64,000 bases of DNA, taken from a phage. Shown here piece by piece: positions 320-29,840 of this stretch. The stretch lies in sequence record PZ049694.1, one strand, 5' to 3'. The translations under genes and the position numbers were made by a program. Position 1 is the stretch's first letter; every line of letters begins with the position of its first letter. A model generated the notes under the pieces. The model saw nothing but the letters and a program-made list of their open reading frames with translations. It had not been told where the DNA came from and made no database searches.

Positions 320-841
320 TCAGTAACCATTATCCTGGCGTTCAAAGTTGTGTTGGTTTTTCAAGTAGTAAAGTTTAAAGATTTCTTCAGCAGAAAGACC
401 CAGACCTTGGAACATGTTCAGAACGAAGTGCAGAATATCAATCATCTCAAATTTAATTTCAAGCTGGTCTTCAGGAGACAGTTCATCGATACGACGATTA
501 CGATATTCAGCATGTTGTGCTTTCCACGGCTTCCATACACTGCTGGCGGCTTTTTCACCATTGCTCATACCACCAAGTGAAGTCAGCAGTTCACGGAATT
601 CATCATCAATATAATCTTTCTGATTACGCAGCCAATCAACAACGTCGCCTGCAGTGGCCAATTCATCAGGATGTTTGTTATGTTCAGGCTTGTCATTTGC
701 CAAACGAACCTGTAAAGATTTCTGCATATCAAGCATTACCTGAAGTGGGTCTTTATCTTCGTGAATCAGAGCATTAAAATAAGCTTCTTCTGCTTTATCA
801 ACACCAGAAATAAGTTGTGAACATTCGTTAAAGTGTGCCAT
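320..841 (-). CDS. 56: dCTP pyrophosphatase gp56 (MazG-like)
   Basis: ExxE (EFRE) and ExxD (EMID) MazG-type motifs; N-terminus MAHFNEC as remembered for T4 gp56; start moved to internal ATG at 841 (track start 856). Confidence 0.75.
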   Translation of the reverse strand: MAHFNECSQLISGVDKAEEAYFNALIHEDKDPLQVMLDMQKSLQVRLANDKPEHNKHPDELATAGDVVDWLRNQKDYIDDEFRELLTSLGGMSNGEKAASSVWKPWKAQHAEYRNRRIDELSPEDQLEIKFEMIDILHFVLNMFQGLGLSAEEIFKLYYLKNQHNFERQDNGY

Positions 842-3880: not shown

Positions 3881-4129
3881 TTATTCTTTTTCGCGAATAA
3901 TAATTACTTGTTGAGGCTGTAGAGCAGATTTCTTTTCGGCAACGATAGACCAAATTAAAGTTCCAATCCAACCAACCATCGTCCAGTTAAAGAGTAAAGA
4001 TACGAAGAAGATTGCTGTTGTGCTTTTTGTGCCACGAATAAGTGCGATTACCCAAGGCAACATGTAAATGATGATTGAACCAATACCTGCGATTAAAACT
4101 GCTACTGAACTAGCTACGAATAATTCCAT
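3881..4129 (-). CDS. small membrane protein (82 aa, two hydrophobic helices)
   Basis: Hydrophobic segments VAVLIAGIGSIIIYMLPWVIALI and IFFVSLLFNWTMVGWIGTLIWSIV. Confidence 0.55.
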   Translation of the reverse strand: MELFVASSVAVLIAGIGSIIIYMLPWVIALIRGTKSTTAIFFVSLLFNWTMVGWIGTLIWSIVAEKKSALQPQQVIIIREKE

Positions 4130-7308: not shown

Positions 7309-7650
7309 TTAAAAGAATTTAAATTTTTTCTTGGTCCTTTCATTAAAAGCTTGTTGTACTTGCATTGTAACACATTTTTCAACATGCGGTGCAAGTTCTG
7401 CTTTTCTGTCCTGGTCAAGAACTGCAAAGTCCATTACGATTTTACCATCAACCCAGTCTAGTTTTGTAATATAGACTATATGATGAGAACCATCTTCAAG
7501 TGTAATCAGAATCTCTTGAATGACATTTTCCATTGCTGAACGGATAATTTTAAGAGATTCATTAAACACTCGTTCTTTGCGAATGTCTTCCCCTTCCGAA
7601 GAAGGGGATTCATCAACGATTTCTAGATTTAAATCATCGAGATTATTCAT
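7309..7650 (-). CDS. hypothetical protein at the position of T4 gene 40
   Basis: 113 aa after moving start to internal ATG clear of uvsX; assignment by synteny only. Confidence 0.4.
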   Translation of the reverse strand: MNNLDDLNLEIVDESPSSEGEDIRKERVFNESLKIIRSAMENVIQEILITLEDGSHHIVYITKLDWVDGKIVMDFAVLDQDRKAELAPHVEKCVTMQVQQAFNERTKKKFKFF

Positions 7651-8815
7651 CGAAATCTTCCATTTCGTCAAGGTCGTTTTCTATATCTGCTGCAGACGGA
7701 GCATCAGAAGTTTTAACCGGAACTTTAGTTGTTGCTTTGCAATTAATAAGGTCGTTAACAGCATCATCAACTTCTTTAATAGAAGAGATAGCACCTAGTT
7801 TATATTTAGTTTCAATTGCATCTCGGAAAGGTTTGTGTTTAAACAACGGTCCCCAGAATTCTACACAATCAGTAGCTTTAGCACGCCATGATTTTTCTTC
7901 ACGAATCATTTCACCTGTTTCTTCGTCAAGGAATTCTCGAGCATACCAACCAGCTTTAGGCTTAACCACAAAACCGATTTCAGTTGCCATTTCTAACAAG
8001 CCACTGAATGGGTCGATACCACCATCGAAATTAACCGTGATTGGGAAAGTAGATTTCTCTTTAACTGTACGAGATTTTTCTGCTTTCAACGTGAAGTCAT
8101 AACCGGTCAATTCTGTACCTTCTTTAACCTGACGTTTAGAGATAAAGAATACAGTGTTAGCAGAGTAAAGAATACCTGTACCACCACCCATAATCTCTTT
8201 AGGATACAATCCGCCAATTTCCATTGCTGTATGGTTAATTGCAACACACGGAATATCTTTAATAGTCAGATACGGTGTCACAATACGGAAAAGAGATTTA
8301 AGTGCCTTAGCACGAGACATATCACCTACGACTTTCTCGTTCAATGCATCTTCGGTTTCTTTCTTAGATGCAGTATTACCGATTGAATCGATAAAGATAA
8401 TAACTTTATCACCGCGTTCAATAGCGTCAAGCTGATTAGTCATATCAACTTTAAGTTGTTCGACAGATTGAATCGGAGTATGAACTACACGGTCTAAATC
8501 AACACCCATTGAACGAAAATAAGATTCTGAAGCACCAAATTCTGAATCATAGAACAAACAAATTGCATCTTTATATTTCTTCATATATGCTGCAACCATG
8601 GTCAGCCCAAACAACGTTTTAAAGTGTTTAGAAGGAGCAGCAAAAATAGTTAAGCCTGATTGCAACCCGGCATTCAGTGCACCACCTAATGCAATATTCA
8701 ACATCGGAATACGAGTAGGGACTTCATCACGATTATTAAACAGCTTAGACTTAGTCAAGTCTGCAGTCATTTTAGAAGTAGAAGCTTTAATCAGACGAGA
8801 TTTTAAATCAGACAT
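7643..8815 (-). CDS. uvsX: RecA-like recombinase UvsX
   Basis: 390 aa; N-terminus MSDLKSRLIKASTS and core motifs as remembered for T4 UvsX. Confidence 0.9.
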   Translation of the reverse strand: MSDLKSRLIKASTSKMTADLTKSKLFNNRDEVPTRIPMLNIALGGALNAGLQSGLTIFAAPSKHFKTLFGLTMVAAYMKKYKDAICLFYDSEFGASESYFRSMGVDLDRVVHTPIQSVEQLKVDMTNQLDAIERGDKVIIFIDSIGNTASKKETEDALNEKVVGDMSRAKALKSLFRIVTPYLTIKDIPCVAINHTAMEIGGLYPKEIMGGGTGILYSANTVFFISKRQVKEGTELTGYDFTLKAEKSRTVKEKSTFPITVNFDGGIDPFSGLLEMATEIGFVVKPKAGWYAREFLDEETGEMIREEKSWRAKATDCVEFWGPLFKHKPFRDAIETKYKLGAISSIKEVDDAVNDLINCKATTKVPVKTSDAPSAADIENDLDEMEDFDE

Positions 8816-8914: not shown

Positions 8915-9463
8915 TTAACGAGCCCATTTGATAATTTCTGTAATCAAATAATTACGTTCGCTTGCATTAAATCCTATAACTTTGTTAGCACCGTCATGAT
9001 TAAGTAATTGATACGTTTGGATTTTGTTATGAATTGCAAACTCTTCAAAATATGAAATGACTGTATTAAAACCGAACGAAGACAAAGTAATAAGGTCGTC
9101 TTCAAAACTTTCAGTCATTTCGTTACGTGTTAAAATAATTGTGAACACATCATGGTTTTGGCAAAGACGAACATAATCCTGTTCATAAACGTCAAGAACC
9201 GAGTCCGCATCTTGTCGAATACGTCCATAAACCCAGTTACTAATATATCCACGGTCTAACAGATAAATCTTAGTAGGGTCTAAATAATTCAACATCGTTT
9301 CGAAACAGCCAACTTCATTTCGAGACTTAACATCGAAACGTCCATCAACTGTTCGTTTAGGGAAATCAATCTTTACATATCTTTCACTAATTTCCATTAT
9401 GTCATTAATGAAAGTTGTTTTACCAGCATTATCCGGGCCATCTACTAAAATAATTTTAGCCAT
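8915..9463 (-). CDS. P-loop kinase, thymidylate/dNMP-kinase-like
   Basis: 182 aa; Walker A GPDNAGKTT; LLDRGYISNWVYG resembles the TMP-kinase DRx..S..Y motif. Confidence 0.55.
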   Translation of the reverse strand: MAKIILVDGPDNAGKTTFINDIMEISERYVKIDFPKRTVDGRFDVKSRNEVGCFETMLNYLDPTKIYLLDRGYISNWVYGRIRQDADSVLDVYEQDYVRLCQNHDVFTIILTRNEMTESFEDDLITLSSFGFNTVISYFEEFAIHNKIQTYQLLNHDGANKVIGFNASERNYLITEIIKWAR

Positions 9464-9464
9464 T

Positions 9465-10364
9465 TTATTCCTCGATTACGACATCTTCATATTTAGGTAT
9501 ATTATACGGTGAAGAAATTAAAGCATTAAAGTAGATGAACTCACCAAGACCTGGATGGAATACTTCTTCAGGATTTTCGAAATATTGAATCTTCGGTCTT
9601 CCTTTAAGAATTTGATAGTACTCAGTTTTAGTTGGTTTAAAAATTCGAATCAGTGCTTCTTCAGGATACTTATTTCTGTCGAAGCTATTATTTGGATCGG
9701 TTATATAAAGCGGTTGACCTAATTGAATTGCGCATTCAACCACTTGTTCAAAACGATAACACGGGTCACTAATTCGAAATGGATGAAAAATACCATCTAG
9801 ATGAATAGGGGCCAAATCACCTACAAGACGCTGCATGATGGAAGGACGTATAACTTTCTGCGTTACGATAATCTTATTACCATCTGCACCAGCGTTAACC
9901 AGCACTTCCTTTTGACGTTTATTCAACACAGTAGTTTGAAGTGAACGATTAACCGACAACATATCGGTTTTTAAGAATTCGTCAATATAAAAACGTGGTT
10001 TATTAGGGTCTGCAGTGATATTGAAATTGAATTCCACATCAAAAGCGCCGTCATATCCAGTGATATCTGTGATTAGAAAATCACAATCATAATAAGCAAT
10101 TAATGAATCAACCACAAATTCATTTTCAGACCAGAAATATTTACGAGTGTTATACGCGTTATCTTTATACCATAATGGAACAAACTTAAATTCTGGGAAA
10201 AGACGTTCACATTCTTTAATATCAGATGCATTACGTGGATATGTAATCACATCACCCGGATTAGCACGGTGCAAATGAAGTTGGAAGTTGCCATCCTTAA
10301 GGATAGCATACTGTCCAGTTTCATAAGACCGCATACTCAAGATAGGTACGCGGAAAATAGCCAT
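9465..10364 (-). CDS. hypothetical protein (299 aa), candidate sugar transferase
   Basis: Occupies the slot where T4 has beta-gt; no recognisable motif; start overlaps the 42-like stop (TAATG). Confidence 0.5.
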   Translation of the reverse strand: MAIFRVPILSMRSYETGQYAILKDGNFQLHLHRANPGDVITYPRNASDIKECERLFPEFKFVPLWYKDNAYNTRKYFWSENEFVVDSLIAYYDCDFLITDITGYDGAFDVEFNFNITADPNKPRFYIDEFLKTDMLSVNRSLQTTVLNKRQKEVLVNAGADGNKIIVTQKVIRPSIMQRLVGDLAPIHLDGIFHPFRISDPCYRFEQVVECAIQLGQPLYITDPNNSFDRNKYPEEALIRIFKPTKTEYYQILKGRPKIQYFENPEEVFHPGLGEFIYFNALISSPYNIPKYEDVVIEE

Positions 10365-11080
10365 TAGTCAAGGAATCCTTTAACATAATCAAAATCACGT
10401 TCAAACACATGGGCACTTACCATGGTATGAGTATAATCACCAACTTCTACACCACATTCGTTAGCGATATAATGAAGTAATTTTCCTTGGAGATAAAAAT
10501 CTAACTGCATAACAACAGCACAGTTCTGAGAACGCATATGGCAGTGGGTATAAAGCTTACCATCACGAATATAATAAGTCACTGAGTCAGTACATGGATA
10601 TTCAAGCGTTTCGTCCGAATCAAGCAAAGCCTGATCTGAACTTTCAAGAATTTGAAACACAACTCTTCGTGAATTAGGTTTCTCTTTAAGTTCTTTTAGA
10701 AGAGCTGGTAATTGGGCCGCAATGCGAGGACCATAGAAAGTGTTGAAGTTCGCCGGCAAAACATCTGATTTTGGTTTAGAAATAAATTTAGCGACATTAG
10801 GATATGCCTTAAACGCTTCTTCTGCGTTGGTACCACCAGAAATCATAAACTTCCAGAAGTCTTCGGCATATTCATAAGAGATGCGGTTAATACGTGGGTC
10901 AGTCATTTTGAATGATGACGGAGTGTCAACAACTACTGTCATAGACCCAATTTCATTACAACGTCCAATACGAGAATCAGTTACGAATTCCGGGTTTTCT
11001 AAAATTTCACGATTGACTGCTTTAAATGCGGTTTGAAAATCTGCGGCTTTGATATATTTCATTGTGTTATGTTTTCCCAT
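10364..11080 (-). CDS. 42: dCMP hydroxymethylase-like enzyme (thymidylate synthase family)
   Basis: 238 aa; TS-family active-site region EYPCTDSVTYYIRDGKLYTHCHMRSQN; divergent from remembered T4 gp42. Confidence 0.7.
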   Translation of the reverse strand: MGKHNTMKYIKAADFQTAFKAVNREILENPEFVTDSRIGRCNEIGSMTVVVDTPSSFKMTDPRINRISYEYAEDFWKFMISGGTNAEEAFKAYPNVAKFISKPKSDVLPANFNTFYGPRIAAQLPALLKELKEKPNSRRVVFQILESSDQALLDSDETLEYPCTDSVTYYIRDGKLYTHCHMRSQNCAVVMQLDFYLQGKLLHYIANECGVEVGDYTHTMVSAHVFERDFDYVKGFLD

Positions 11081-11359
11081 GTTTACCTCAATACAATTTA
11101 TTATATACTCAATTCGTAAAGCTTATTTGAATTTCTTGACAATGTTGATATAACGTAAAGCTTCAGCATCGATACTTCCAAGAACACTATGAAGAAATGC
11201 ATCAGCGTAGTATTCCAATTGAACAGGTTTCTTTAATCACTTTAGCCGCTTTAGTTTCAAACAGGCCCATCAGGGCCTTTTTAAGAATTTGTTCATTAGT
11301 GTTCAGTTTCATAGTCAAAATCTCTTCATTAAGTTGGTGGTTAAAAGTTTTTCTAGAAA

Positions 11360-12520
11360 TCATTCCGGGTACCTCAAAGCGTCATCAGAGTTAGTTATAT
11401 CAATAATAGATATAGAGTTTTCTGCTAACCCGTTTTTAGATAATTGACGTTTATAATATCTTTCACAATATGTACACGTCGTCCCGCAGATTTCATTAGC
11501 ACAATCGAAATCTGGATGTCTGAACCACCTTTTTTCTAAAAAGCCATCTAACAAAGAGGTTTCAATATTTACTGTATGTGAAAACTCTGTCTCATTTTCA
11601 AGAGTGAAAATGGTCTCTAAAGGCTTCCACAGTTCTAACAAATTACCTTCAAACTTTTCAGAAGCGTATGCTTCAAGAACTTTCAAAATGTAGTCTGTGC
11701 TACCTGTACGTCCTGAAACTTTGAATTGAGTGATACCAATATCATTATAAAGTTTCAAATCTTGAGGACGAACAAAACGAGTTCTCAACCAGTTAAATGG
11801 ATCTGTATCACGAGCTTTAATACAATGTTGCATTGGATATCCATTTAAAGATTTGGCATCATCTACTGTAACATCGGTGCTATGGAAAATATAGCAAGAG
11901 TCACGATAACTACAATGTGTTGTATACCCTTTACCAGCATTAGAACAGAACTCATTTACAAGAACTTCAAATATTATATTGTTCTTATTACAAAACTCTG
12001 CTGCACGCTTCAGGAAAGAAACTGAACGGTTTTTATGAATTCCGCAGCAGACCTTTTTGATATTATATTGGTCATGCAAGTATTTGATTTGAGTTACAGC
12101 ATCGACATGTAGAATTGTTGAAACTTCAATCTCAATGTCTTTATTGACTTCACGAACAATTTCCATAACAACAGGGTTAGCGATAGTAATACGCCATACG
12201 CCTATTGACCAAAGATACTGAACATAATCCTGAATAGCTTTCTTCTTCCACTCAACTAGTTCTCTTTTTGAACCAGGATTTATCGTGTTGAGTGTATAGT
12301 TAAAGCAAATACCTAATTCGTTACAACGTTTAACGTAATCTTCTAACATCTTTTTGTCAACGTCAGGAAGCCTAAAATCAGGTCTGGCTGCTACAAAAGC
12401 CATTTCTCTTGTAGAGCCGTATACTTCATTTATCAAGCTATTAGGATAAGTTTTATTGAGCTCTACGATTTTATCAAGAAGAGCTAAATCAAAATTCGTT
12501 CCGATTTTAAAAGTATTCAT
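11360..12520 (-). CDS. Cys-rich enzyme of unknown function (386 aa)
   Basis: 13 or more Cys; C-terminal CANEICGTTCTYCERYY contains a C-x3-C-x2-C pattern; possible Fe-S or metal site. Confidence 0.5.
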   Translation of the reverse strand: MNTFKIGTNFDLALLDKIVELNKTYPNSLINEVYGSTREMAFVAARPDFRLPDVDKKMLEDYVKRCNELGICFNYTLNTINPGSKRELVEWKKKAIQDYVQYLWSIGVWRITIANPVVMEIVREVNKDIEIEVSTILHVDAVTQIKYLHDQYNIKKVCCGIHKNRSVSFLKRAAEFCNKNNIIFEVLVNEFCSNAGKGYTTHCSYRDSCYIFHSTDVTVDDAKSLNGYPMQHCIKARDTDPFNWLRTRFVRPQDLKLYNDIGITQFKVSGRTGSTDYILKVLEAYASEKFEGNLLELWKPLETIFTLENETEFSHTVNIETSLLDGFLEKRWFRHPDFDCANEICGTTCTYCERYYKRQLSKNGLAENSISIIDITNSDDALRYPE

Positions 12521-12577
12521 TTTTTTACATCTCGCGTTAATTGATGCGATGGTTTTTTGCAGGTCTTACTTAAATTA

Positions 12578-12979
12578 TTATAGATTCGGTTTATATGATT
12601 TAAATGTTTCGAATTCGCCTTTATTCATAAGAGCTTTGAATTCGTCAGGACGCATAGCTTTGTCGTCGATAATCCAATCATATACTGGTTTATGTGTTAG
12701 CAAATTATGGTACTTCAAGCCAATGTTTGCCAAGTTCTGAATCAGACTTGGGAGAATGTCAATTGCTATACGACCAGGACCTACTGACTTCATACCGCGA
12801 GCAGTGTAAAGCGTTATTGTATGCCCTGCATCATACAGGGCATTAATGGCAGACACCATTTCGACGTCTGGTTTGAAGTTCACGTAATCACGATTGTTAT
12901 TCCACTCTGTTATACAATCATCGACATCAAAACAAAGATTAAGCATGTTTTCTACACGGTGCATTAGATTCGTTCCCAT
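12578..12979 (-). CDS. HAD-superfamily phosphatase (small, 133 aa)
   Basis: Motif I FDVDDCIT (DxDxT); overlaps the upstream gene by 16 nt. Confidence 0.65.
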   Translation of the reverse strand: MGTNLMHRVENMLNLCFDVDDCITEWNNNRDYVNFKPDVEMVSAINALYDAGHTITLYTARGMKSVGPGRIAIDILPSLIQNLANIGLKYHNLLTHKPVYDWIIDDKAMRPDEFKALMNKGEFETFKSYKPNL

Positions 12980-14649
12980 TGATGAGTGATATCGCCACCG
13001 ATTGGACGATAAGAAACACCAGTTTCTTTATCAGTTAGTACCCATTTACCAGGATTTTTTGTAATCAGAGTAGCCGTTACAGGTTCTGCTACGTCATAAC
13101 TAATAGAGCCGTCTTGAAGTACACGGCCCATGTTACGTAATTGTTTAGTCAGAAGTTCCATACCTTTATAATATGCGGCTACCGCTTTAAGTGGATTATT
13201 CTTGAAATAACCACCTAATGCAATCCAGATAATTGCAACTGCCAAATGATGATACTCGTTAAACGAACTCATCTTTCCATATTTGTAAACTAATGGATTG
13301 ATGTTAATAGTCACATTACAAGTTGTTTCATCAATAGTAAACTGTCCCCAGGTCGGATTAGCGTTGAATTCATCATACCCTGAAACAGCATAAAGCACTT
13401 TAGCTTCGTCATACAATTTTGGTCCGTAAATCTTGGTTTCGCCAAAATATCCACGAGGGTCGATAAACTTGACTTCGCCATTATCAGTAATCATAGTATT
13501 ACTGAAGTTCGGGTCACCATGAATAACAGAGTACTGTCCCTGAGAACGGTTATGATAACGAATAAGGTGTTCTAAAGCTTGTTTCAGCATTGGCTTCAGA
13601 CGCCCAATCTTAGTGTAGTTCACATGTGTGATTTTACCAAATGAATCAATCAATGGTTGAATACTTTCACAACGATCAATAACTTTCGTATAGAACTCTT
13701 TAGTGAAATCACGACGAACAGTTTCAGGACTTACAAAATAAGTGTCTGTGCTGAATTTCAGTGCATCTAAAATTGCATCAACAATTTGTGGACGAGCAAG
13801 ACTTGATTTGGATTTAATATATTCAAATGCCGGCTTACCTTTAATGCGTTCCATTTCAAAGTTATTTTCATTAACAGAAACTAACTGAGGAACTGAATCT
13901 GATTTCACTTTAAGATACCATGAAATCTCATCTTTCTGAAGAGCTCGACCCTGTTCGGTTAATGCGAATTTAGTTACAGTTTCTTCACCGATTTCAACTG
14001 CATTAAAACTACGATTAAGTTCACGAACTTCATGAGCTTTTTCAAGTTTAGGCATATCACCTAAATCAATTAGATTCATAAGCTCTGATTTATTGAATGC
14101 ACCGCTGTAAAGGAATTCTACGAAATCACGTCCTTTGCAGTATTCATGAATTTCCTCATCAGTAGAACCCATATAGAATTCCCAGTCTTTGAACTGATAA
14201 ATTCCTACAACATTACCACCTGTTGAACCTACGTTAGTGATATTTTCACCGTCGAAATTATATCGACATTCGTCGCCCTTAACATAGATTGCGTTAACAT
14301 TCCAAGACCATGAACCAAAATCGGGAATAATATCACACCAGTTAACAATTACATTATGGCCGTTTAAATCTTTGTGTAATTTAGCAAGAGCATAAGCAGA
14401 ACCATACGCTTCATCAACTGTACGAATAGTCACATTGAACCCTTCTTGCTCACAATAAGCTCGAACAGTTTCAGCAAATTTTGAATGAACTACTACAATA
14501 ATTTCGTCTGCGCCAAGGTCAGAATAAATTGTATACAAATTGCTCAGAATAGTGTCTTGTTTATAGTTAACAAGCACCTTAGGAATATGATGCGTTATTG
14601 GATACAAACGAGTTGCCAGTCCAGCACCAAGAATAACAGCTTTTTTCAT
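12964..14649 (-). CDS. bifunctional sugar-1-phosphate nucleotidyltransferase / APH-type kinase
   Basis: N-terminal ILGAGLATRL (GxGxR of NDP-sugar pyrophosphorylases such as LicC, MurU, RmlA); C-terminal VIHGDPNFSN Brenner motif and FIDPRG (APH/choline-kinase fold). Confidence 0.75.
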   Translation of the reverse strand: MKKAVILGAGLATRLYPITHHIPKVLVNYKQDTILSNLYTIYSDLGADEIIVVVHSKFAETVRAYCEQEGFNVTIRTVDEAYGSAYALAKLHKDLNGHNVIVNWCDIIPDFGSWSWNVNAIYVKGDECRYNFDGENITNVGSTGGNVVGIYQFKDWEFYMGSTDEEIHEYCKGRDFVEFLYSGAFNKSELMNLIDLGDMPKLEKAHEVRELNRSFNAVEIGEETVTKFALTEQGRALQKDEISWYLKVKSDSVPQLVSVNENNFEMERIKGKPAFEYIKSKSSLARPQIVDAILDALKFSTDTYFVSPETVRRDFTKEFYTKVIDRCESIQPLIDSFGKITHVNYTKIGRLKPMLKQALEHLIRYHNRSQGQYSVIHGDPNFSNTMITDNGEVKFIDPRGYFGETKIYGPKLYDEAKVLYAVSGYDEFNANPTWGQFTIDETTCNVTININPLVYKYGKMSSFNEYHHLAVAIIWIALGGYFKNNPLKAVAAYYKGMELLTKQLRNMGRVLQDGSISYDVAEPVTATLITKNPGKWVLTDKETGVSYRPIGGDITHQWERI

Positions 14650-14690
14650 GTTGTGGTCCTCATTGGTAAGTAGGAGTATTGTACACTATT

Positions 14691-14834
14691 CTAGTTAAAG
14701 CATTCATACTTTGCTTGTAGTCCAATCATAATCCATCCAATTACAAGTGTCGGAATCATTACTGGAGCCGTTAAGCTCCAGTAGATAGTCATGACAAGCA
14801 TCAATAGTAAAAGTCCTATTGTTATTGCTTTCAT
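14691..14834 (-). CDS. small hydrophobic protein (47 aa)
   Basis: MKAITIGLLLLMLVMTIYWSLTAPVMIPTLVIGWIMIGLQAKYECFN; ATG overlaps the SIS gene stop (ATGA); below track cutoff. Confidence 0.35.
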   Translation of the reverse strand: MKAITIGLLLLMLVMTIYWSLTAPVMIPTLVIGWIMIGLQAKYECFN

Positions 14835-15466
14835 TGTTCGCCTCGTAACATGGCACCTAGTGCACCGCCAGGGTGGAACTTAAGGAAGTCATTAGAGGTA
14901 AATCCACGTTCAGACGAAAGGTTGATAGCAAACGTATCGATAAGCGCTAACAACAATGTAGTGGACATGGTCGGAGCCAGAGAATTCTCATCGACCTCTA
15001 CCGCGATGCCTGTACAGAAAGAGTAATCAAAAAGGGCTTCATTTTCTTGTGGAATGTCTGGGTTACAATGCAACAGAATTTGTTTGACGTTCGGACGAAT
15101 CATTTTAAGATGCTTAGCCACGCCTATCATTTCTTCAGTTTTACCAGAACGACTAATATGAATCAACACATCATTAGGCGCAATGAATCCTGCATCACCG
15201 TGAGAATAATGCCCAGTGTTCAAGTACATACTCGGGATACCGAGTGAAGCAAATGTCTCAGAAGCTTTAGTTGCAATATTAGCATTCTTACCAACACCTG
15301 TAATAATTACTCGGCTTTCATAATTACTAAGTCCCGGACGTCGAAGAGTTTCTAGAATAGCATTATAACGAGCAGGGTTTTGACTAATTACTTTGGCCAT
15401 AGCGGCCAAAGAAGAAGCTTGTTTTATGATTGCGTCAATAGCGATAGTAATAGGAGTAGTTTTCAT
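14831..15466 (-). CDS. SIS-domain sugar-phosphate isomerase, arabinose-5-phosphate isomerase-like (no CBS domains)
   Basis: 211 aa; SIS motif ITGVGKNANIA; C-terminal FLKFHPGGALG matches the KdsD/GutQ/KpsF signature. Confidence 0.7.
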   Translation of the reverse strand: MKTTPITIAIDAIIKQASSLAAMAKVISQNPARYNAILETLRRPGLSNYESRVIITGVGKNANIATKASETFASLGIPSMYLNTGHYSHGDAGFIAPNDVLIHISRSGKTEEMIGVAKHLKMIRPNVKQILLHCNPDIPQENEALFDYSFCTGIAVEVDENSLAPTMSTTLLLALIDTFAINLSSERGFTSNDFLKFHPGGALGAMLRGEQ

Positions 15467-15506: not shown

Positions 15507-18218
15507 TCAAAAATCGAACATATCGAATAGAGATGCTTTCTTCTCGTAATCGAGTTTCGCTGCTGATGTGAATCCTTCAAGTGGTTTAATAAATGTCTTC
15601 TCAAGGAGAACAGTGTAGTCCATCCAATGAAGTACGTCGTCTTTAATTAAATCTGTGATTTCAGTACCAGAAGGCCATGCGATACATTTATCACCGAATG
15701 GGTTTCCTTCACGTAAAGGCAGAACATATACTTTTTCACCTTCTACAACTTGCGGCGCATCGATATTACCTTTGATAGCACGGTTATACGTCAGAATTCC
15801 ACGAATATGGAACGGGCATTTGGGACCAGGGAATCCACCTACATCATATTTAGCAATGTTATTCGCAGAAGATACCGACGCGATGCTAATATAATTCAAT
15901 TGACGGAATTCTTTTTCAAACTCTTTAAAATATTCTTGTAATGATTCTTCACCTTCTTGAAGCATACGACGAATACATTCTTTAAGAGCTTTCTGTACTG
16001 CTTTAGGAGTCGAAGATTTCTGCGTTTCAAGACCCATGATTTTAAGCTTAGGTTCAGCGTATCTGGTTCCTTCCATATCCCACACGTTTAATGCATAACG
16101 TTTCTTACCAGTCCAGAATCCACCAATACCTTTAGAACCGAGCGGAGGACCAGCGATAGCTTCTCGGTCCATGAACATTAAGTGTTGTTTATTGTTCATG
16201 TATTCACACATTTCACGGAAACCTCTATCAATAGCTGGTTCCATACGTTCACGAGCGAACTTATCTAAGAAGTCTACCCAATGGTTGGTATCACGGAATT
16301 TAGATTCACCAACCTTATCGATAATTTTATCAGCAGATACGTAAATAGAGTCTGTATCACCATAAAGAACGAAAGCTTCACCTTCTGTACCACAAACTTC
16401 GTTCAGATATTCATTAACTTTACGTTCAATCCACTGTAAAGCCATTTGCCCGAATGTTGTGATTGCAGTAGCATTACGCAAATCATAATAACGAAACCAA
16501 ACGTTGCCAAGTGCACCATAAAGTGAGTTGATAAGCAATTTACGGTTAATTTGGGCAGTCATACCTGCAACTTCAGTACGTTGAGCTCTAAACAACATTT
16601 CATTAAGAGATTTAGCAGACAACTTTTTAATCTTTTCTTTAATCTCATCGCTGAAGTCGAAACGATAATCAACATCTAATGGTTCGTCAACAGAAAGATT
16701 AGGATTATGCAATGCCTCTTTAATTATTTCGCCATTACGTTGAGCCGCAAGCATATAACCTTTATGTTCTTTACGTTGATTAAAGACTTTAGTGATTTCA
16801 GTTGGAACAACACCATCACGGTCTTTATAATACATCATGCCGTTAGGAGAACAACTGTACACATCAGAAGGACGTTCAGCGATTGCGTTAATATAATCAT
16901 GCAATGGAGCTACTTTAAACGTTCCTGCTATTGTTTCTGGGCTAATATTCACTTGGCGAATAATACTTGGATACAGAGATGTAAGGTCGAAACTCATTAC
17001 ATATTTGTATCGATTTGGAATAGGTTCCTTAACAAAAGCGCCAGGATAAGGTTGAACCGGGTGAGAACGACCTTGTGGAATCACCTTGTTCTGCTCTTTA
17101 AGGCTATTAAAAATAATAGCATCCCATGTTTTAATTGGGCTAAACACAGATTGAATCTGTATCTTAGCATAATAACCCATGTCCAAACTCAAGTTGATGA
17201 ACTGACGCTTAGCATCAATTTGCAATACACGATACACGTCGATAATGTTATAAGAAATATATCGTTGGTGATTGCTTTCACGAAGCTTAGAAATAGGGCC
17301 GTCATATTTCAGTTTACCAACGTTCAATTCAAATTCTGAAATGTAATCCAGAGAATATGATGGTTGGTTAGTAAAAGAGAATTTTTTGTAAAGGTCAATG
17401 TAATCAAGAACAGAGATACCGAACAATGTAATGATTTCACGAGAACCATACATGTTTTCGATAACTTTAACACGAGTTTTACGATGTGGTGATAAACGTT
17501 TCGCAGTAGATTCGCCAAAAATATTCTTGATTCGGTTATACACATATGGAATATCAAATGACTCAACGTTCCATCCAGTCAAAATGACAGGAGTTTTCTG
17601 TTGCCAGAAGTTGAGATATTCCATCAACAATTCTTTTTCGTTATCGAACGGCATATAAATGATTTTATCGATAATTTCGGATGGAACTTCATCACCACCT
17701 TGTTCTTGAAGCTTAGCCGCAATTTCGATAGACCATTCTTCTACATTACCATATGGAGAATTCAATAGATCAAATACGTAGAACCTGTCGTCAATTGAGT
17801 CATAATGGGTGATAGCATCAATTGGATGTTTTGCTTGTGACGGCTCAGGGAACCCGTCAGGAGATGTTACTTCGATGTCGAAGTTAGCCACACGAATTTT
17901 TGTATGGTCGTATTTGATTTCATAGTTATAAGTGTCAGACAAATACGCCAATTTGAAATCGTCCATGCCAAGTGCTTCAAGTCCGATATCTTCCATGCGT
18001 TTAATCCATTGGGAGGCATCACGCATATTAGCGAACAACTTACGAGTACACGGCTTACCGTAGATATCGAAATATTTCGTAGCCTGACTTTCTGGACAAT
18101 GAGCAAACAGTGATGGTTTATATTCTACTTCACGAGTACGTTCACGGCCATTAGAATCGATGTAACGTTCAAAAATTGAATCACCAATCTGTTCAACCGT
18201 TAAGTAAAATTCTTTCAT
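15507..18218 (-). CDS. 43: DNA polymerase gp43 (family B)
   Basis: 903 aa; exo motif FDIE; polymerase motif LYGDTDS; N-terminus as remembered for T4 gp43. Confidence 0.95.
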   Translation of the reverse strand: MKEFYLTVEQIGDSIFERYIDSNGRERTREVEYKPSLFAHCPESQATKYFDIYGKPCTRKLFANMRDASQWIKRMEDIGLEALGMDDFKLAYLSDTYNYEIKYDHTKIRVANFDIEVTSPDGFPEPSQAKHPIDAITHYDSIDDRFYVFDLLNSPYGNVEEWSIEIAAKLQEQGGDEVPSEIIDKIIYMPFDNEKELLMEYLNFWQQKTPVILTGWNVESFDIPYVYNRIKNIFGESTAKRLSPHRKTRVKVIENMYGSREIITLFGISVLDYIDLYKKFSFTNQPSYSLDYISEFELNVGKLKYDGPISKLRESNHQRYISYNIIDVYRVLQIDAKRQFINLSLDMGYYAKIQIQSVFSPIKTWDAIIFNSLKEQNKVIPQGRSHPVQPYPGAFVKEPIPNRYKYVMSFDLTSLYPSIIRQVNISPETIAGTFKVAPLHDYINAIAERPSDVYSCSPNGMMYYKDRDGVVPTEITKVFNQRKEHKGYMLAAQRNGEIIKEALHNPNLSVDEPLDVDYRFDFSDEIKEKIKKLSAKSLNEMLFRAQRTEVAGMTAQINRKLLINSLYGALGNVWFRYYDLRNATAITTFGQMALQWIERKVNEYLNEVCGTEGEAFVLYGDTDSIYVSADKIIDKVGESKFRDTNHWVDFLDKFARERMEPAIDRGFREMCEYMNNKQHLMFMDREAIAGPPLGSKGIGGFWTGKKRYALNVWDMEGTRYAEPKLKIMGLETQKSSTPKAVQKALKECIRRMLQEGEESLQEYFKEFEKEFRQLNYISIASVSSANNIAKYDVGGFPGPKCPFHIRGILTYNRAIKGNIDAPQVVEGEKVYVLPLREGNPFGDKCIAWPSGTEITDLIKDDVLHWMDYTVLLEKTFIKPLEGFTSAAKLDYEKKASLFDMFDF

Positions 18219-23843: not shown

Positions 23844-24859
23844 TGTGTTGCCTCAATATAAAGTTCGTTGGAATATTTGACCAGCGCTTCTCTGTCTTCG
23901 TCTGAGATATCTGGAATCGCGTCAATATATTCTTTAATGATATCTTGAAGTGATTTAATCTCGATTTCCTGGTCGTCATCAGATTCAACACTGTTATCAA
24001 CTTTAGAAACCATACGAAGAGAGTGAACTACTTTTTCAAGTTCAGATTCAAACTTAGTCAACTCTGAATCAATTTCTGATACTATAACACGTACGGCTAG
24101 ATTAGTATAATCAGAATAATTGATTTTGCCTTTAAACGGATAAGTGATTCGTCGATGCCATGTTGTTTCATTAGGAATAAATTCCATACGTTCAACATCA
24201 GTGTCAAATACCCAGAATCCGCGCGGGTCGTTTTCATCACCTGCAGTAAGGGTCCATGGTGTCCCAATATATTTAACGTTAGCAGCTTCAGAGATTGTGT
24301 GGAAGTGGCCGGACCAGACTTGTTTATAGGTCTTTAAGAAATCAGGTTCAAGCCCATGAGACTTCATTCCTTTATAGAAATAAAAGCCGTTCAGTTCCCA
24401 GTGACCAACACAATACGCGGCAGAAGAAGTTTTGATGTGCTCTAAGATTTCACCTGTATTTTCTTCACACATCCATGGAACGATATCAATCAGACATCCG
24501 TCAAAATCTACAGTAGTTGGATGCTCGTAAATAGTAAAGTTTTCAAATTGAGTTAACAATTCAGAAACAGTGTTAGGTGTTATTGTATTCTTGAACGCCA
24601 TGTCATGGTTTCCTATCGTGACATGAACGTGAATGCCTGCTTTAGAAATCATATCAACGATTTCACGATTGAATTCCATTGTACGATGTGTTATTGCTTT
24701 ACGGACGTCAAACCAATCACCGTACTGAATCCAAGTTTTAATCCCGTGTTTCTTAGAGTATTCAATTGCTTGACGAATACCATCACGTTGAATATCTTGA
24801 ACCCATGGGTCGTCTTGTTTGACTCCGATATGGAAGTCGCCTAAGTGCAAAATTTTCAT
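23840..24859 (-). CDS. 47: recombination endonuclease subunit gp47 (Mre11/SbcD-like)
   Basis: 339 aa; calcineurin-like phosphoesterase motifs LHLGDFH, GNHD, GHWE. Confidence 0.9.
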   Translation of the reverse strand: MKILHLGDFHIGVKQDDPWVQDIQRDGIRQAIEYSKKHGIKTWIQYGDWFDVRKAITHRTMEFNREIVDMISKAGIHVHVTIGNHDMAFKNTITPNTVSELLTQFENFTIYEHPTTVDFDGCLIDIVPWMCEENTGEILEHIKTSSAAYCVGHWELNGFYFYKGMKSHGLEPDFLKTYKQVWSGHFHTISEAANVKYIGTPWTLTAGDENDPRGFWVFDTDVERMEFIPNETTWHRRITYPFKGKINYSDYTNLAVRVIVSEIDSELTKFESELEKVVHSLRMVSKVDNSVESDDDQEIEIKSLQDIIKEYIDAIPDISDEDREALVKYSNELYIEATQ

Positions 24860-24903
24860 ATTATTTCCTCATTAGTTAATTCATTCTATCATCCGTTTAT
24901 AAA

Positions 24904-24931
24904 GCAAAAAAAGGAACTCCGAAGAGTTCCT
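24904..24931 (-). terminator. rho-independent terminator
   Basis: ggaactc-cgaa-gagttcc hairpin (UUCG loop on minus RNA) followed on the minus strand by U7. Confidence 0.65.
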
Positions 24932-25103
24932 ATCCACATAGTACACCGTACAGAGGCTCATTTGAACTTTTAAATCGAATGGGCTTGTATGTAATAGTTC
25001 CTTCGGCTTTAGCTTTATCATAAGACTCTTTAAAACGTCTCATTCTTTCTGCTTTGCCTTTACGGATTTTATCGAAATTTTCAGAGGTCAGGTCGTTCGT
25101 CAT
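24930..25103 (-). CDS. small hypothetical protein (57 aa)
   Basis: ORF MTNDLTSENFDKIRKGKAERMRRFKESYDKAKAEG... with GAGGTG SD; stop abuts the terminator; below track cutoff. Confidence 0.35.
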   Translation of the reverse strand: MTNDLTSENFDKIRKGKAERMRRFKESYDKAKAEGTITYKPIRFKSSNEPLYGVLCG

Positions 25104-25142
25104 GCATAATCACCTCTCAGAAAATACCTAAATCGATTTCTC

Positions 25143-25364
25143 TCATCGTTTCCACCATTTCTTAACTTGAAATGAATCAACCCACACGAGTTGTTTTGGG
25201 TCGGCCTTTACAATAGGCGGACAAATTTCTGTAATAGAACCGTCGTGATATTCCTTTTCAGAAATTTTAACACAAAGAGGACCTCCCAATTTAAGGGTGA
25301 ACCCTGCGTTCAGCTTCAGACGTTTAAACTTTGTTTGAACTAGCGCCATTAATGATGTCCTCAA
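25143..25364 (-). CDS. hypothetical protein (73 aa)
   Basis: Minus-strand ORF; start may be internal. Confidence 0.4.
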   Translation of the reverse strand: MRTSLMALVQTKFKRLKLNAGFTLKLGGPLCVKISEKEYHDGSITEICPPIVKADPKQLVWVDSFQVKKWWKR

Positions 25365-25647
25365 TAGCCTGACGAGTAGTAACCCACTGGATTTTAATTA
25401 ACTTGTCATTATATGGTTGTCGTAGAATATCCCGAGATTTCTTAATAGCATATTCGTAAGCTTCGAAGTTGTTTTGAATTGCTGCTTCTTGAGCGTGAGC
25501 ATAAAGACGGTTTAGTTCAAAACGATTCTTTTTAAGAATCTTTTCGGATTTTTTACGTGCTTCAGCTTCATTTTTCTTTTGGATTTCTTGTAGCATTTTA
25601 GCTACTGCATCTTCTGCTTCTTTATTTTCAATAATCTCGGTAGTCAT
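25324..25647 (-). CDS. hypothetical protein (107 aa), coiled-coil rich
   Basis: Minus-strand ORF in the 47-to-55 interval where T4 carries alpha-gt. Confidence 0.5.
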   Translation of the reverse strand: MTTEIIENKEAEDAVAKMLQEIQKKNEAEARKKSEKILKKNRFELNRLYAHAQEAAIQNNFEAYEYAIKKSRDILRQPYNDKLIKIQWVTTRQAIEDIINGASSNKV

Positions 25648-25648
25648 A

Positions 25649-25864
25649 TTATCTCATTAAATTAAAATAAAAACGTCCATCCTCTTCAATACAGAACTCA
25701 TACTCAACCGGAGTCCCATTTATCGAAAATGACACGTCATGTGGGTTCAAAGGGTCGATGTCAAAATTAATTTTAAATTCACGACCCAACAGTTTTACCA
25801 AATAAGGGATTGCTTCGTCAAAAGGTTCTTCTAAGTAGTTAGAGATGTCAATTGTCATCCTCAT
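25649..25864 (-). CDS. hypothetical protein (about 71 aa)
   Basis: Track ORF 25649-25942 trimmed to an internal ATG clear of gene 55. Confidence 0.4.
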
Positions 25865-26405
25865 ATAAAAAATCCAAACTAGGCGAATCGCTAACAACTT
25901 CCTTCTTTTCAGCCCCAGGAGCTTTATAAGCGGATTCTTCATAATGCGTCATTTTATCGTAGATGTCTTGAATAAACGTTTCATCTACCAACGCTACCAT
26001 ATCATCGTCATGACTGTCGTAGACATTATGAACGAAGTAACTATATTTCTTTGCAACTTCCTTACGTTCTTTTTTGATACGTTGGACAAAAGCATTAAAA
26101 CAAGCTCGAGTTATGTATGCATGTGGGTTATTGTACTTAGTTTCGTCGAAATTATGAAGTCCCTTAATAGAGGCTTCAATCCCATCTGCAATCATCTCCT
26201 GCTTCCAAGACTGGGTATATCCTGAAAAGTTGAAACGTTTGGACAGGCCTTCGGCGATAAGCATAATTGCTAAACCGATGGTATCATTCTGACGAATAAT
26301 TTTGTTTGGGTCTTTATTATTTAAGAGCTCCTTTTTCCACTCGATTATAGCGGCGAGAAGCTCTTTATTATTCACATAGTTATTTTTAGGTTTTTGTCCA
26401 GTCAT
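25848..26405 (-). CDS. 55: late-transcription sigma factor gp55
   Basis: 185 aa; [49 protein letters not shown] near-identical to remembered T4 gp55. Confidence 0.92.
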
Positions 26406-26477
26406 AAGTACCTCTTAGCTCAATTCATAGGTCTATTATATCATAATATTTGGAGACCTATCTTAAAGCACGAGATA

Positions 26478-26747
26478 CTATCGGAGCAAACAATAAGCCT
26501 GAAACACTTTTTCCATTAAACGTTTGAACTCATGGATATCGATATAAAGCTCAGTAAGACCGGCATTATAAAGAAAATCTAAAAAGTTCTCATGAGTTTC
26601 GTTATAGTCGCCTTCGTTTAATTGAGATACATGAGTTTCCCAAAAACCAACACCTTTAACGAATGGAAAATACGTGACTTTCATGTATTCGTCAACATAA
26701 AATTCGCCCAGCTTTTCTTCAGTTATACTGATTCGAGTTAATTTCAT
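26478..26747 (-). CDS. hypothetical protein (89 aa)
   Basis: Minus-strand ORF, translationally coupled chain. Confidence 0.5.
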   Translation of the reverse strand: MKLTRISITEEKLGEFYVDEYMKVTYFPFVKGVGFWETHVSQLNEGDYNETHENFLDFLYNAGLTELYIDIHEFKRLMEKVFQAYCLLR

Positions 26748-26971
26748 TCTAGTTCCTTTGCTGCTTCAAGAGCATCATCCAACGAATCAAATTGGTCAAC
26801 GAAATCGATATTCAACGCATCGTCAGCCGTAGCATATAGCCACCATTGTTTGAATTCATATTCTAGGATAAATCCAAGCCCTTCAATCTGAGAAAGACCT
26901 AGGCTATTTGTACCAACTTCGTAACCAGCTAGACGCAGGTCATTAATCAAAGATTCTGTTAATACGCTCAT
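26744..26971 (-). CDS. hypothetical protein (75 aa)
   Basis: Minus-strand ORF, 4-nt overlap with neighbour. Confidence 0.5.
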   Translation of the reverse strand: MSVLTESLINDLRLAGYEVGTNSLGLSQIEGLGFILEYEFKQWWLYATADDALNIDFVDQFDSLDDALEAAKELE

Positions 26972-27300
26972 TTTACCGCCTTAACAATTTTCAGGTCAAC
27001 GAATTTTTTCTTACGTTGATTTTTCATACGACGGATAGTCTTTTCAGAGATTTCATGTTTCTGATAAGCTTTAGATTCAACACCAAATGCAGCAACGTCA
27101 AATTCAGAAAGAATATATTGTACTAGAATTTCACGAATAGAATTACGTCCAATTTTCTGGTCGTGTTTTTGCATGATTTCATAAAGACGGAATTCCCACG
27201 CGTCAAGGACTTGAGGAGTAACAATATTGCCGGATTCCAGAAGAGCAACAACTTTATCGAAAGCGAAAGAATTAACTACGTTTTTGATTTTAGTAGACAT
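26968..27300 (-). CDS. hypothetical protein (110 aa)
   Basis: Track start 27369 lies inside the promoter cassette; internal ATG at 27300 has SD GAGGAAA. Confidence 0.5.
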   Translation of the reverse strand: MSTKIKNVVNSFAFDKVVALLESGNIVTPQVLDAWEFRLYEIMQKHDQKIGRNSIREILVQYILSEFDVAAFGVESKAYQKHEISEKTIRRMKNQRKKKFVDLKIVKAVK

Positions 27301-27319
27301 ATTATTTTCCTCGGTTATT

Positions 27320-27368
27320 TTATTATCCAATGAGAGAGCATTATACTCTGCTCTCAAGAGTTTGTGCA
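27320..27368 (-). repeat. 47-bp promoter/stem-loop cassette, copy 1
   Basis: ttattatccaatgagagagcattatactctgctctcaagagtttgt; near-identical to 57498-57543; -10 TATAAT on minus strand inside inverted repeat gagagca...tgctctc. Confidence 0.65.
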
Positions 27369-27608
27369 TTATTCCGTGATAAGATAATGTAAATAGTTTG
27401 CTTGACGAACACTGATATCAACACCCATATCAAAGATACCTTTATAGAACGGGTATTTGTTTTCAGTAGAATCTAGACTAAAAGCCTTTCCACCACAACT
27501 AACGGTAATAGCATCAGTTAAAGTGTCATATACAAACTTAATAGTTGAGCCATTCACTACGACTTCAAGACGTTTTTTCGATGTAATAATGTCTAATTCT
27601 TGTTCCAT
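27369..27608 (-). CDS. hypothetical protein (79 aa)
   Basis: Minus-strand ORF. Confidence 0.5.
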   Translation of the reverse strand: MEQELDIITSKKRLEVVVNGSTIKFVYDTLTDAITVSCGGKAFSLDSTENKYPFYKGIFDMGVDISVRQANYLHYLITE

Positions 27609-27671
27609 GATATTTTCCTCATTTTAAGACGATAGGAAGATAATAACATGTCTTCCTATCGTTGTATATTA

Positions 27672-28901: not shown

Positions 28902-28905
28902 CTGG

Positions 28906-29512: not shown

Positions 29513-29514
29513 AA

Positions 29515-29730: not shown

Positions 29731-29840
29731 ATTTACCCTTAATTAACTAAGCATTGATAAACACCAAACTATACTGCGAATAAAATTCTGGACCAAAACG
29801 AAAAATCATATCATTTATAGTATCCATAATGTAATTCAAT

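Follow-up and report, generated by a model that had tools for sequence, protein, structure and literature searches.

The gene cluster described here occupies positions 8915-15466 of a 64,000-nucleotide (nt) stretch of the phage sequence record PZ049694.1. The whole of this stretch is referred to as the window, and coordinates are window positions. The cluster is flanked by uvsX (7643-8815) and by gene 43, encoding the DNA polymerase (15507-18218). A preliminary description made from the sequence alone had listed seven genes in this interval; all seven open reading frames (ORFs) are indeed present on the minus strand, and their coordinates proved to be exact. Judging by the sequence, the region is very probably a DNA hypermodification cluster for arabinosyl-5-hydroxycytosine (ara-5hoC) of an RB69-type Mosigvirus. 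Special attention is given to the gene of a cysteine-rich protein of the Peptidase_U32 family (hereafter, U32), which may add a second hydroxylation route to this otherwise known system. The genes of the cluster and its two partners elsewhere in the window are the following:

8915-9463, minus strand: P-loop, thymidylate-kinase-like nucleotide kinase (RB69 ORF045c); 182 amino acids (aa), 98% identical to RB69 ORF045c
9465-10364, minus strand: GT-B glycosyltransferase (GT), predicted first (alpha) arabinosyltransferase (RB69 gp46:47); 299 aa, from predicted structure and Foldseek
10364-11080, minus strand: flavin/O2-dependent dCMP 5-hydroxylase of the thymidylate synthase (TS) fold, i.e., 5-hydroxy-dCMP (5hodCMP) synthase (RB69 gp48); 238 aa, 99% identity to gp48
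11123-11363, minus strand: small ORF in the slot of RB69 ORF049c, split by a frameshift; 53 aa (11202-11363) and 31 aa (11123-11218)
11360-12520, minus strand: Peptidase_U32-family cysteine-rich protein (RB69 ORF050c); 386 aa, PF01136
12578-12979, minus strand: HAD-type sugar phosphatase of the AfhF type (RB69 gp51); longest ORF 133 aa, match to PDB 9iqw
12964-14649, minus strand: bifunctional sugar kinase/sugar-1-phosphate nucleotidyltransferase of the AfhE type (RB69 gp52:53); 561 aa
14691-14834, minus strand: small hydrophobic ORF between the isomerase and AfhE-type genes; 47 aa
14831-15466, minus strand: D-arabinose-5-phosphate isomerase consisting of a SIS domain only (RB69 gp55); 211 aa, KpsF/GutQ and KdsD matches
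323-841, minus strand: dCTPase (gene 56); 70.5% identity over 173 aa to the protein annotated as dCTPase in Serratia phage LC53 (E 7e-82)
62741-63472, minus strand: gene 1 dNMP kinase (gp159 of RB69 in Lee et al.); 95.9% identical to RB69 gp1

At the nucleotide level, the cluster region is 98.6% identical to both Shigella phage phi25-307 and Escherichia phage ST0. Its identity to positions 24047-30598 of RB69 is 97.9%, and its gene order is that of RB69 ORF045c-055c. Most of this 6.5-kb region is present in 152 phage records. The gene-for-gene and nucleotide match to RB69 assigns the phage, by sequence, to the Mosigviruses (RB69 type). The preliminary description had suspected an RB69-type arabinosylation system and left open whether the gene set was the one already described; it is the same set, and the module as a system is thus already known as the RB69/HY126 arabinosyl-5-hydroxycytosine pathway. 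Mahler 2025 and He 2026 are reportedly among the publications on this cluster. The RB69 cluster (PMC6024577, PMC13326640) has the same genes in the same order and in the same slot between gene 43 and uvsX, and its proteins are 98-100% identical to those of the window. Two differences from RB69 can be noted: the gene in the ORF049c slot is frameshifted in the window, whereas the GT and the bifunctional enzyme are intact in it and split in the RB69 record.

The comparison with T4 drawn in the preliminary description holds as well, the T4 order having been checked as uvsX-segA-b-gt-42-imm-imm.1-43, and both proposed partners, the dCTPase (56) and the dNMP kinase (1), are encoded in the window. 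A homolog of T4 Imm (64% identity) was found at 3884-4129 on the minus strand, several kb off and beyond uvsX relative to gene 43; imm is therefore displaced from the 42-43 slot, not lost. Four proteins of the cluster have Pfam matches above the curated cut-offs: Thymidylat_synt (56.9 bits), Peptidase_U32 (42.4 bits), NTP_transferase (39.1 bits), and SIS (41.9 bits). No Pfam match was found for the 299-aa and 133-aa proteins. Most of the earlier domain calls hold; the P-loop kinase and the APH-type kinase half have only sub-threshold matches.

The modified base has been determined for RB69. Tandem mass spectrometry (MS/MS) and nuclear magnetic resonance (NMR) showed 5-hydroxycytosine with arabinofuranose ether-linked at C5, in mono- and di-arabinosyl forms (Lee et al. 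2026, PMC13326640); the base fragment has m/z 128, not 142, and NMR places the linkage to C5 through oxygen. The arabinose on RB69 DNA was first described as arabinosyl-hydroxymethylcytosine (arabinosyl-hmC; Thomas et al. 2018, PMC6024577), and the hmC assignment for RB69 was later termed erroneous (PMC13390438). RB69 gp48 is a TS homolog with bound flavin mononucleotide (FMN) that yields 5-hydroxy-dCMP in vivo, with the oxygen coming from 18O2; together with the gene 1 kinase, which phosphorylates 5hodCMP, it gives rise to 5-hydroxydeoxycytidine (5hodC) in E. coli DNA (PMC13326640).

The 238-aa TS homolog of the window matches the enzyme of phage HY126 (PDB 9iqc, 9ir2, and 9iqu) with an E value of 8e-161 and about 98% identity, i.e., with a handful of substitutions. 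When aligned with E. coli ThyA and T4 gp42, it retains the catalytic cysteine (C163, corresponding to ThyA C146) and has D194 at the position of ThyA N177, E160 at L143, and N186 at D169, where T4 gp42 has D171. F75 and A97 stand for ThyA E58 and W80, both of which are kept in T4 gp42 (E60 and W82), and the identity to gp42 is only 25%. Because of the D169N change, the replacement of E58 and W80, and this low identity, the sequence alone argues against a hydroxymethylase. The preliminary description had named the protein a 42-like hydroxymethylase and the base hydroxymethyl-C. Both must be replaced: the relationship to 9iqc and gp48 and the residue signature identify a flavin/O2-dependent dCMP 5-hydroxylase, and the base, according to the RB69 data, is 5-hydroxycytosine.

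Records of such TS homologs extend to 57 Acinetobacter and 22 Rhizobium phages, Sphingomonas phage PAU, and Tenacibaculum phage PTm5. In distant phages, a gene of the Flavodoxin_2 (FMN-reductase) type lies upstream of or near the triad of TS homolog, GT, and kinase (contigs L027, 2605-3123; L028, 8739-9293; and L029, 8715-9275). Plausibly, it encodes the flavin-reducing partner of the flavin-dependent hydroxylase. No Flavodoxin_2-type gene was found in the RB69-type cluster.

For the sugar branch, the NCBIfam models matched by the 211-aa isomerase are those of the KpsF/GutQ family (E 2e-32) and of KdsD (E 7e-31, at profile positions 47-202 of 328); the protein consists of the SIS domain without CBS domains. 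The FHPGGALG signature pointed out earlier is present at its C-terminus, and the assignment to the arabinose-5-phosphate (Ara5P) isomerase family holds. The 561-aa protein carries the NTP_transferase domain at residues 3-99, and its C-terminal half has only sub-threshold APH/fructosamine-kinase matches at residues 308-409; wherever it aligns with the RB69 protein, the identity is 100%. Both this enzyme and the 299-aa GT are single intact ORFs in the window, whereas the RB69 GenBank record (AY303349.1) splits both. In the literature, the RB69 splits have been attributed to errors of sequencing, with which the intact ORFs of the window are consistent; re-sequencing has shown gp52:53 to be a single ORF (Thomas et al., PMC6024577). 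The 133-aa HAD protein matches PDB 9iqw (E 7.8e-88) and the EcbF/BcbF capsule-biosynthesis phosphatase family TIGR01689 (E 4e-13). Its longest ORF overlaps the upstream gene by 16 nt (12964-12979). Since the RB69 protein is annotated with 128 aa and the crystallised 9iqw aligns from residue 5, the sequence suggests that the true start is probably Met6 at 12964, giving 128 aa and an ATGA stop/start overlap.

ORF055c and ORF053_052c had been proposed for UDP-arabinose synthesis (Thomas et al. 2018, PMC6024577). According to He et al. 2026, as cited by Lee et al. (PMC13326640), the kinase domain of HY126 AfhE converts Ara5P to arabinose-1,5-bisphosphate, the HAD phosphatase AfhF converts the latter to arabinose-1-phosphate, and the nucleotidyltransferase domain of AfhE produces UDP-arabinofuranose (UDP-Araf). 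Of the route given in the preliminary description, the start with an Ara5P isomerase, the self-made arabinose nucleotide-sugar, and the transfer to a modified cytosine stand; the free arabinose intermediate does not, the reported HY126 route passing through the 1,5-bisphosphate. In the clusters of Thanatos-1 (L012), Dhakavirus (L014 and L015), and Marfavirus (L016), AfhE- and HAD-type genes were found without a match to the arabinose-5-phosphate isomerase. Presumably, these phages rely on host KdsD or GutQ or make another pentose.

The 299-aa protein, listed earlier as an unknown, has neither a Pfam match nor a sequence match in the PDB. Its AlphaFold2 model (predicted local distance difference test score, pLDDT, of 95.6) has a GT-B fold. 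The top glycosyltransferase found for it by Foldseek is MshA (3c4q; E 3e-6, query template-modelling (TM) score 0.61), and the HY126 glycosyltransferase with UDP (9ir0) is also among the matches; by predicted fold, the protein is thus a GT-B transferase. Its RB69 counterpart, gp46:47, has been predicted to be the first arabinosyltransferase, and phage transferases use UDP-Araf on RB69 DNA in vitro (Lee et al., PMC13326640). A tblastn search with the GTs of Acinetobacter phage Maestro revealed no match in the window for a second (beta) arabinosyltransferase of the RB69 ORF003c type; the RB69 gene lies outside the corresponding stretch. The 182-aa kinase has only weak P-loop/dTMP-kinase matches, while members of its family on other contigs match dTMP kinase (E 3.4e-10) or Pfam Thymidylate_kin, and structural matches of RB69 ORF045c to thymidylate kinases have been reported (PMC13326640). 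The kinase goes together with the GT in all sampled TS-type clusters except that of Sphingomonas phage PAU, which has neither the kinase nor the GT.

The 386-aa protein had been characterised earlier only as a Cys-rich enzyme. It is Cys-rich, and it can now be assigned to the Peptidase_U32 family, since PF01136 matches with 42.4 bits against a cut-off of 22.4. Its AlphaFold2 model has a pLDDT of 92.5, and the best PDB match found by Foldseek is the U32 structure 5d88 (E 7.5e-7, target TM score 0.69); a PDB sequence search gave no matching chain. E190, C203, and C209 are invariant in 69 U32 homologs and are counterparts of E162/C170/C177 of TrhP and E161/C169/C176 of RlhA, with C203/C209 aligned with C169/C176. 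The K-x-x-G-R motif is also kept. In the phage subfamily, nine cysteines are invariant and a tenth is conserved at 97%; C233 and those of a C-terminal CX4CX3CX2C motif are among them. In comparisons between genera, no other protein of the cluster is as well conserved as U32 (79-87% identity; kinase, 38-72%; AfhE, 43-72%). Within the Mosigviruses it is under strong purifying selection, with ratios of synonymous to non-synonymous codon differences of 25:1, 21:3, and 18:1. The reading of "peptidase U32" as a protease found no support, and the gene neighbourhood argues against it.

The characterised U32 members of E. coli are RlhA (ho5C2501 of 23S rRNA), TrhP (ho5U34 of tRNA), and UbiU/UbiV (ubiquinone), all of which depend on prephenate. 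Independence from O2 has been shown for TrhP and UbiU/V, and prephenate is the proven oxygen donor for UbiU/V. Parallel O2-dependent enzymes exist in both cases, namely TrhO for TrhP and the flavin enzymes UbiI/H/F for UbiU/V.

The neighbourhood of the U32 gene in other phages points in the same direction. In Enterobacter phage Entb_45, the 79-aa gene that separates U32 from the TS homolog encodes a type II chorismate mutase (CM; CM_2, 40.9 bits vs. a cut-off of 27), and CM_2 genes are likewise present in Serratia LC53, Klebsiella PhiKpNIH-6, Proteus Pm5461, and Shewanella Thanatos (34.7-46.8 bits). In Thanatos, U32 and CM have been relocated together within the cluster. Among 50,697 phage records, a tblastn search detected the phage CM in 51, and all of the cases listed have it next to the TS homolog or U32. 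A scan of viral contigs and metagenome look-ups, in which the metagenomic loci were viewed within +/-10 kb, yielded 53 U32 loci in 29 lineages (clustered at >=80% U32 identity). CM, 3-deoxy-D-arabino-heptulosonate 7-phosphate (DAHP) synthase, or a fusion of the two lies directly beside U32 in seven of the 29 lineages, in all cases above the Pfam thresholds. The fused form adjoins U32 on the phage-like contigs L058 (8399-9430), L059 (3-968), L061 (7290-8354), L062 (8323-9384), and L072 (11076-12194), and DAHP synthase alone is found on contigs L047 and L024. Shikimate-pathway enzymes are unusual cargo for viruses.

The P-loop kinase family occurs within 10 kb of U32 in 21 of the 29 lineages and the GT family in 18, often in the order kinase-GT-U32. 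TS-family matches near U32 were found in only three lineages: the T4-like phages, one with an ordinary ThyA (L049), and one with a weak match at a contig edge. The L049 protein, which has the RSGD motif and scores 243 bits in Pfam, was rejected as a candidate hydroxylase. In sixteen lineages, U32 occurs together with the GT family of the window, and no TS-type hydroxylase lies within 10 kb; conversely, distant contigs of the GT family show the order Flavodoxin_2, TS homolog, GT, kinase and no U32. These complementary arrangements suggest a triad of hydroxylase, GT, and kinase, in which the hydroxylase is of the TS type, of the U32 type or, as in the window, both. Other neighbours of U32 include dCMP deaminase, dUTPase, uracil-DNA glycosylase (UDG), NT5C, deoxynucleoside kinase, nucleoside deoxyribosyltransferase, and a TAGT-type (Tet-associated) DNA glycosyltransferase.

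Two of these loci deserve a separate description. On L025 (7777-12000 and 15073-16179), the genes flanking U32 encode a Gly_transf_sug glycosyltransferase, a member of the window's GT family, and a protein with a weak TAGT match, and a UDP-galactopyranose mutase gene lies nearby, which suggests a different sugar on a hydroxyl made by U32. The 86-kb contig L004 (5135-15428) carries U32 with NT5C, a PnuC-like transporter, deoxynucleoside kinase, a radical SAM/SPASM protein, and nucleoside 2-deoxyribosyltransferase; this deoxynucleoside-centred cluster also encodes a second, very divergent U32 paralog (E 3e-35 with a hidden Markov model (HMM) of the subfamily).

Among sequenced phages, U32 was found only in those of Enterobacterales and Shewanella (222 records). 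Phages of strict aerobes lack the gene: no U32 was detected in those TS-homolog-carrying phages that infect Acinetobacter, Rhizobium, Sphingomonas (PAU), or Tenacibaculum (PTm5). The window itself encodes the anaerobic ribonucleotide reductase proteins NrdG and NrdD (29844-32125, minus strand; 98-99% identical to RB69). This implies deoxynucleotide synthesis under anoxic conditions and therefore sharpens the question of how an O2-dependent hydroxylase could suffice.

Taken together, the pathway can be proposed as follows. The dCTPase (gene 56) would convert dCTP to dCMP, which the TS-fold enzyme would hydroxylate at C5 with O2 and flavin, as shown for the 98-99% identical RB69 and HY126 enzymes; the gene 1 kinase would phosphorylate 5hodCMP to 5hodCDP, as shown for RB69, and 5-hydroxy-dCTP would take the place of dCTP in replication. 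By homology, the SIS isomerase would form arabinose-5-phosphate from ribulose-5-phosphate. The kinase half of the 561-aa enzyme would add the 1-phosphate, the HAD phosphatase would strip the 5-phosphate, and the nucleotidyltransferase half would produce UDP-arabinofuranose, following the HY126 report as cited by Lee et al. The 299-aa GT-B enzyme is predicted to attach the first alpha-arabinose to the 5-hydroxyl, on the nucleotide or on DNA, and a second transferase, encoded outside the window, would lengthen the sugar chain. The U32 protein would provide a second route to the 5-hydroxyl, independent of O2 and with prephenate as the oxygen donor.

We propose that U32 is an O2-independent, prephenate-dependent dCMP (pyrimidine C5) hydroxylase backing up the TS-fold enzyme, and we give this reading a probability of roughly 60%. 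A second route would be needed without oxygen, because the TS-fold hydroxylase requires O2 and the phage destroys its dCTP; since unmodified C should not enter the DNA, the substrate would be a mononucleotide. If so, U32 would likely be the first virus-encoded prephenate-dependent hydroxylase and the first of its family to act on a DNA precursor. This functional interpretation of U32 and of its CM or DAHP synthase companions is, with respect to the searchable literature, the new element in an otherwise known system.

A number of observations weigh against this proposal. The spacing in the phage proteins is E-x12-C-x5-C instead of E-x7-C-x6-C, so that CX5C stands in place of CX6C. The third and fourth canonical cysteines of the [4Fe-4S] set could not be aligned with those of the E. 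coli enzymes: the global MAFFT alignment is reliable for the first two cysteines only, and the profile HMM gives short local matches. The sole U32 match in NCBIfam is UbiU, with 19.4 bits against a cut-off of 440, and the HMM of the phage subfamily scores the E. coli enzymes at <=15 bits, indicating a distinct and very divergent subfamily. No CM is encoded anywhere in the window, and the window's lineage lacks it; therefore, host PheA and TyrA would have to supply the prephenate. The oxygen lifestyle of the host is not a clean predictor of U32, as the E. coli Dhakaviruses lack it and the pattern tracks phylogeny. In vitro, hydroxylation has so far been demonstrated for none of the U32 proteins (PMC10990095). 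In the work on RB69, the protein (RB69p050) appears only in a table, as a "sugar or heterocycle reductase"; the text notes RNA pyrimidine-hydroxylation pathways without tying them to RB69p050 and mentions neither chorismate nor prephenate (Lee et al., PMC13326640). A reading with U32, prephenate, and CM was not found in the searchable full-text literature on phage hydroxycytosine, outside which He 2026 and Mahler 2025 lie. As for the rest of the pathway, the order of the sugar steps is known second-hand, through Lee et al. citing He et al., and the first transferase step of RB69 failed to be reconstituted in vitro (PMC13326640).

Other explanations for U32 and for the cluster were compared with this proposal. 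Instead of hydroxylating, U32 might play an accessory part in the chemistry of the sugar or the base, for example by recycling a cofactor for the TS-fold hydroxylase or by reshaping the pentose, as the label in Table 1 of Lee et al. (PMC13326640) implies. Its TIM-barrel fold is common to many sugar enzymes, it always lies inside a modification cluster, and on L024 it adjoins an RmlD-like reductase/epimerase. However, the Acinetobacter phages DLP3 and Maestro make arabinosylated 5-hydroxycytosine, even tri-arabinosylated, without U32, the 16 lineages with the GT and kinase families but no TS-type hydroxylase leave it nothing to assist, and the adjacent CM and DAHP synthase genes point to prephenate, the oxygen donor of the family. 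We also know of no U32 member that is a reductase, and we regard an accessory role as rather unlikely. It is more doubtful still that U32, with CM, hydroxylates RNA as RlhA and TrhP do (23S rRNA C2501 or the wobble U of host or phage tRNA) and merely travels with the cluster. RNAs are the only characterised nucleic-acid substrates of U32 proteins, and the phage encodes tRNAs, according to the RB69 annotation; but U32 lacks the C-terminal extensions of TrhP and RlhA (386 aa vs. 453 and 653), holds the hydroxylase position in the triad, and over the 29 lineages is tightly linked to a DNA GT family, the TMP-kinase-like kinase, dCMP deaminase, dUTPase, NT5C, and deoxynucleoside kinase.

Two alternatives concern the module as a whole. 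The view published in 2018 (PMC6024577), in which a gp42-like dCMP hydroxymethylase makes hmC that is then arabinosylated with a sugar derived via free arabinose, draws on the TS fold, the catalytic cysteine, and the dCMP-specifying aspartate that the 238-aa protein shares with gp42, and Table 1 of Lee et al. still bears free-arabinose labels (PMC13326640). It is refuted for RB69 by the base fragment, the C5-O linkage, and the 18O2-derived oxygen of the gp48 product (PMC13326640), as well as by the later correction (PMC13390438). The residues of the window's enzyme that depart from gp42, the low identity to it, and the 1,5-bisphosphate of the HY126 route, as far as it is reported by Lee et al., make this version very improbable here too. 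A module for lipopolysaccharide or capsule mimicry or for remodelling of the host envelope, which the preliminary description had named as a possible refutation, would explain the resemblance of the enzymes to KdsD/KpsF, to phosphatases of capsule biosynthesis, and to GlmU-type transferases, as well as the corresponding database annotations. Yet the genes lie among replication genes beside a base hydroxylase, arabinose sits on a DNA base in RB69, and phage transferases use UDP-Araf on RB69 DNA in vitro (PMC13326640). The chemistry of virion DNA excludes such a role for RB69, and for the window it has almost no probability.

In comparison with the E. coli U32 factors, the phage protein shares the U32 domain, the Glu and two Cys residues, K-x-x-G-R, a link to prephenate supply, and the pairing with an O2-dependent enzyme. 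It differs in belonging to a divergent subfamily with CX5C and the extra CX4CX3CX2C, and its context implies a deoxynucleotide substrate instead of RNA or quinone. With respect to the HY126 Afh pathway, the hydroxylase and the HAD protein of the window are nearly identical to the crystallised proteins, and its 561-aa and 133-aa proteins are the counterparts of AfhE and AfhF; no chain in the PDB matches the window's U32 or 299-aa GT by sequence. The glucosyl-hmC system of T4 (gp56, gp42, gp1, alpha- and beta-gt) has a common logic and genomic slot with the cluster: dCTP is destroyed, dCMP is modified by a TS-fold enzyme, gp1 follows, and a sugar is placed on the new hydroxyl. In the window, however, a hydroxyl is added instead of a hydroxymethyl group, by flavin/O2 instead of folate chemistry, and the phage makes its own arabinofuranose, whereas T4 uses host UDP-glucose. 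T4 beta-gt has no tblastn match in the 64-kb window; alpha-gt was not searched directly, and in the alpha-gt region of the RB69 record only the small ORFs a-gt.2 to a-gt.5 are annotated.

Both small ORFs of the cluster were missed in the preliminary description. The gene in the ORF049c slot is split by one extra A in a short A-run, as the alignment with RB69 indicates; the 53-aa form is also found in phi25-307 and JS09, and the 79-aa form in RB69 and NRG-P0074. In most other genera this slot holds a CM gene, and in Klebsiella phage Biddle_MM4 only a hairpin. The possibility that the window's ORF is itself a (degenerate) CM was rejected: CM_2 matches neither it nor RB69 ORF049c, and the HMM of phage CMs gives E values of 0.08-0.19. 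The 47-aa product of the ORF at 14691-14834 is strongly hydrophobic, and the start of this ORF overlaps the stop codon of the isomerase gene. Its 144-nt counterpart is annotated in phi25-307, NRG-P0074, and Serratia phage LC53 ("transmembrane segment(s)"), while the RB69 record has a different, 111-nt ORF at this position.

Homing-endonuclease-type genes interrupt the cluster in some relatives, as in NRG-P0074 (L021, 4203-4964) and LC53 (L011, 7078-7716), where they separate the AfhE gene from the HAD gene or the HAD gene from U32; there are none in the window. A scan of the cluster for promoters and terminators gave 22 promoter-like sites vs. 26.7 expected, which is not above chance, and the base composition over 8915-15466 is unremarkable.

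As has already been published, the sugars on cytosine determine which defences (restriction, CRISPR, and type IV systems) a therapeutic phage can evade. An O2-independent route to the 5-hydroxyl would resolve the tension between a hydroxylase that requires O2 and gut bacteria that often grow without oxygen: gut phages could keep their DNA hypermodified, and replicate at all after dCTP destruction, in anoxic hosts. In many uncultured phages, U32 would be the sole hydroxylase feeding the same GT family, and some of them would bring their own CM or DAHP synthase. With a soluble mononucleotide as the substrate, the hydroxylation chemistry of U32 proteins would become directly testable. The proposed role would also predict which phage genera can replicate anaerobically, which would be relevant to the choice of gut-targeted phages.

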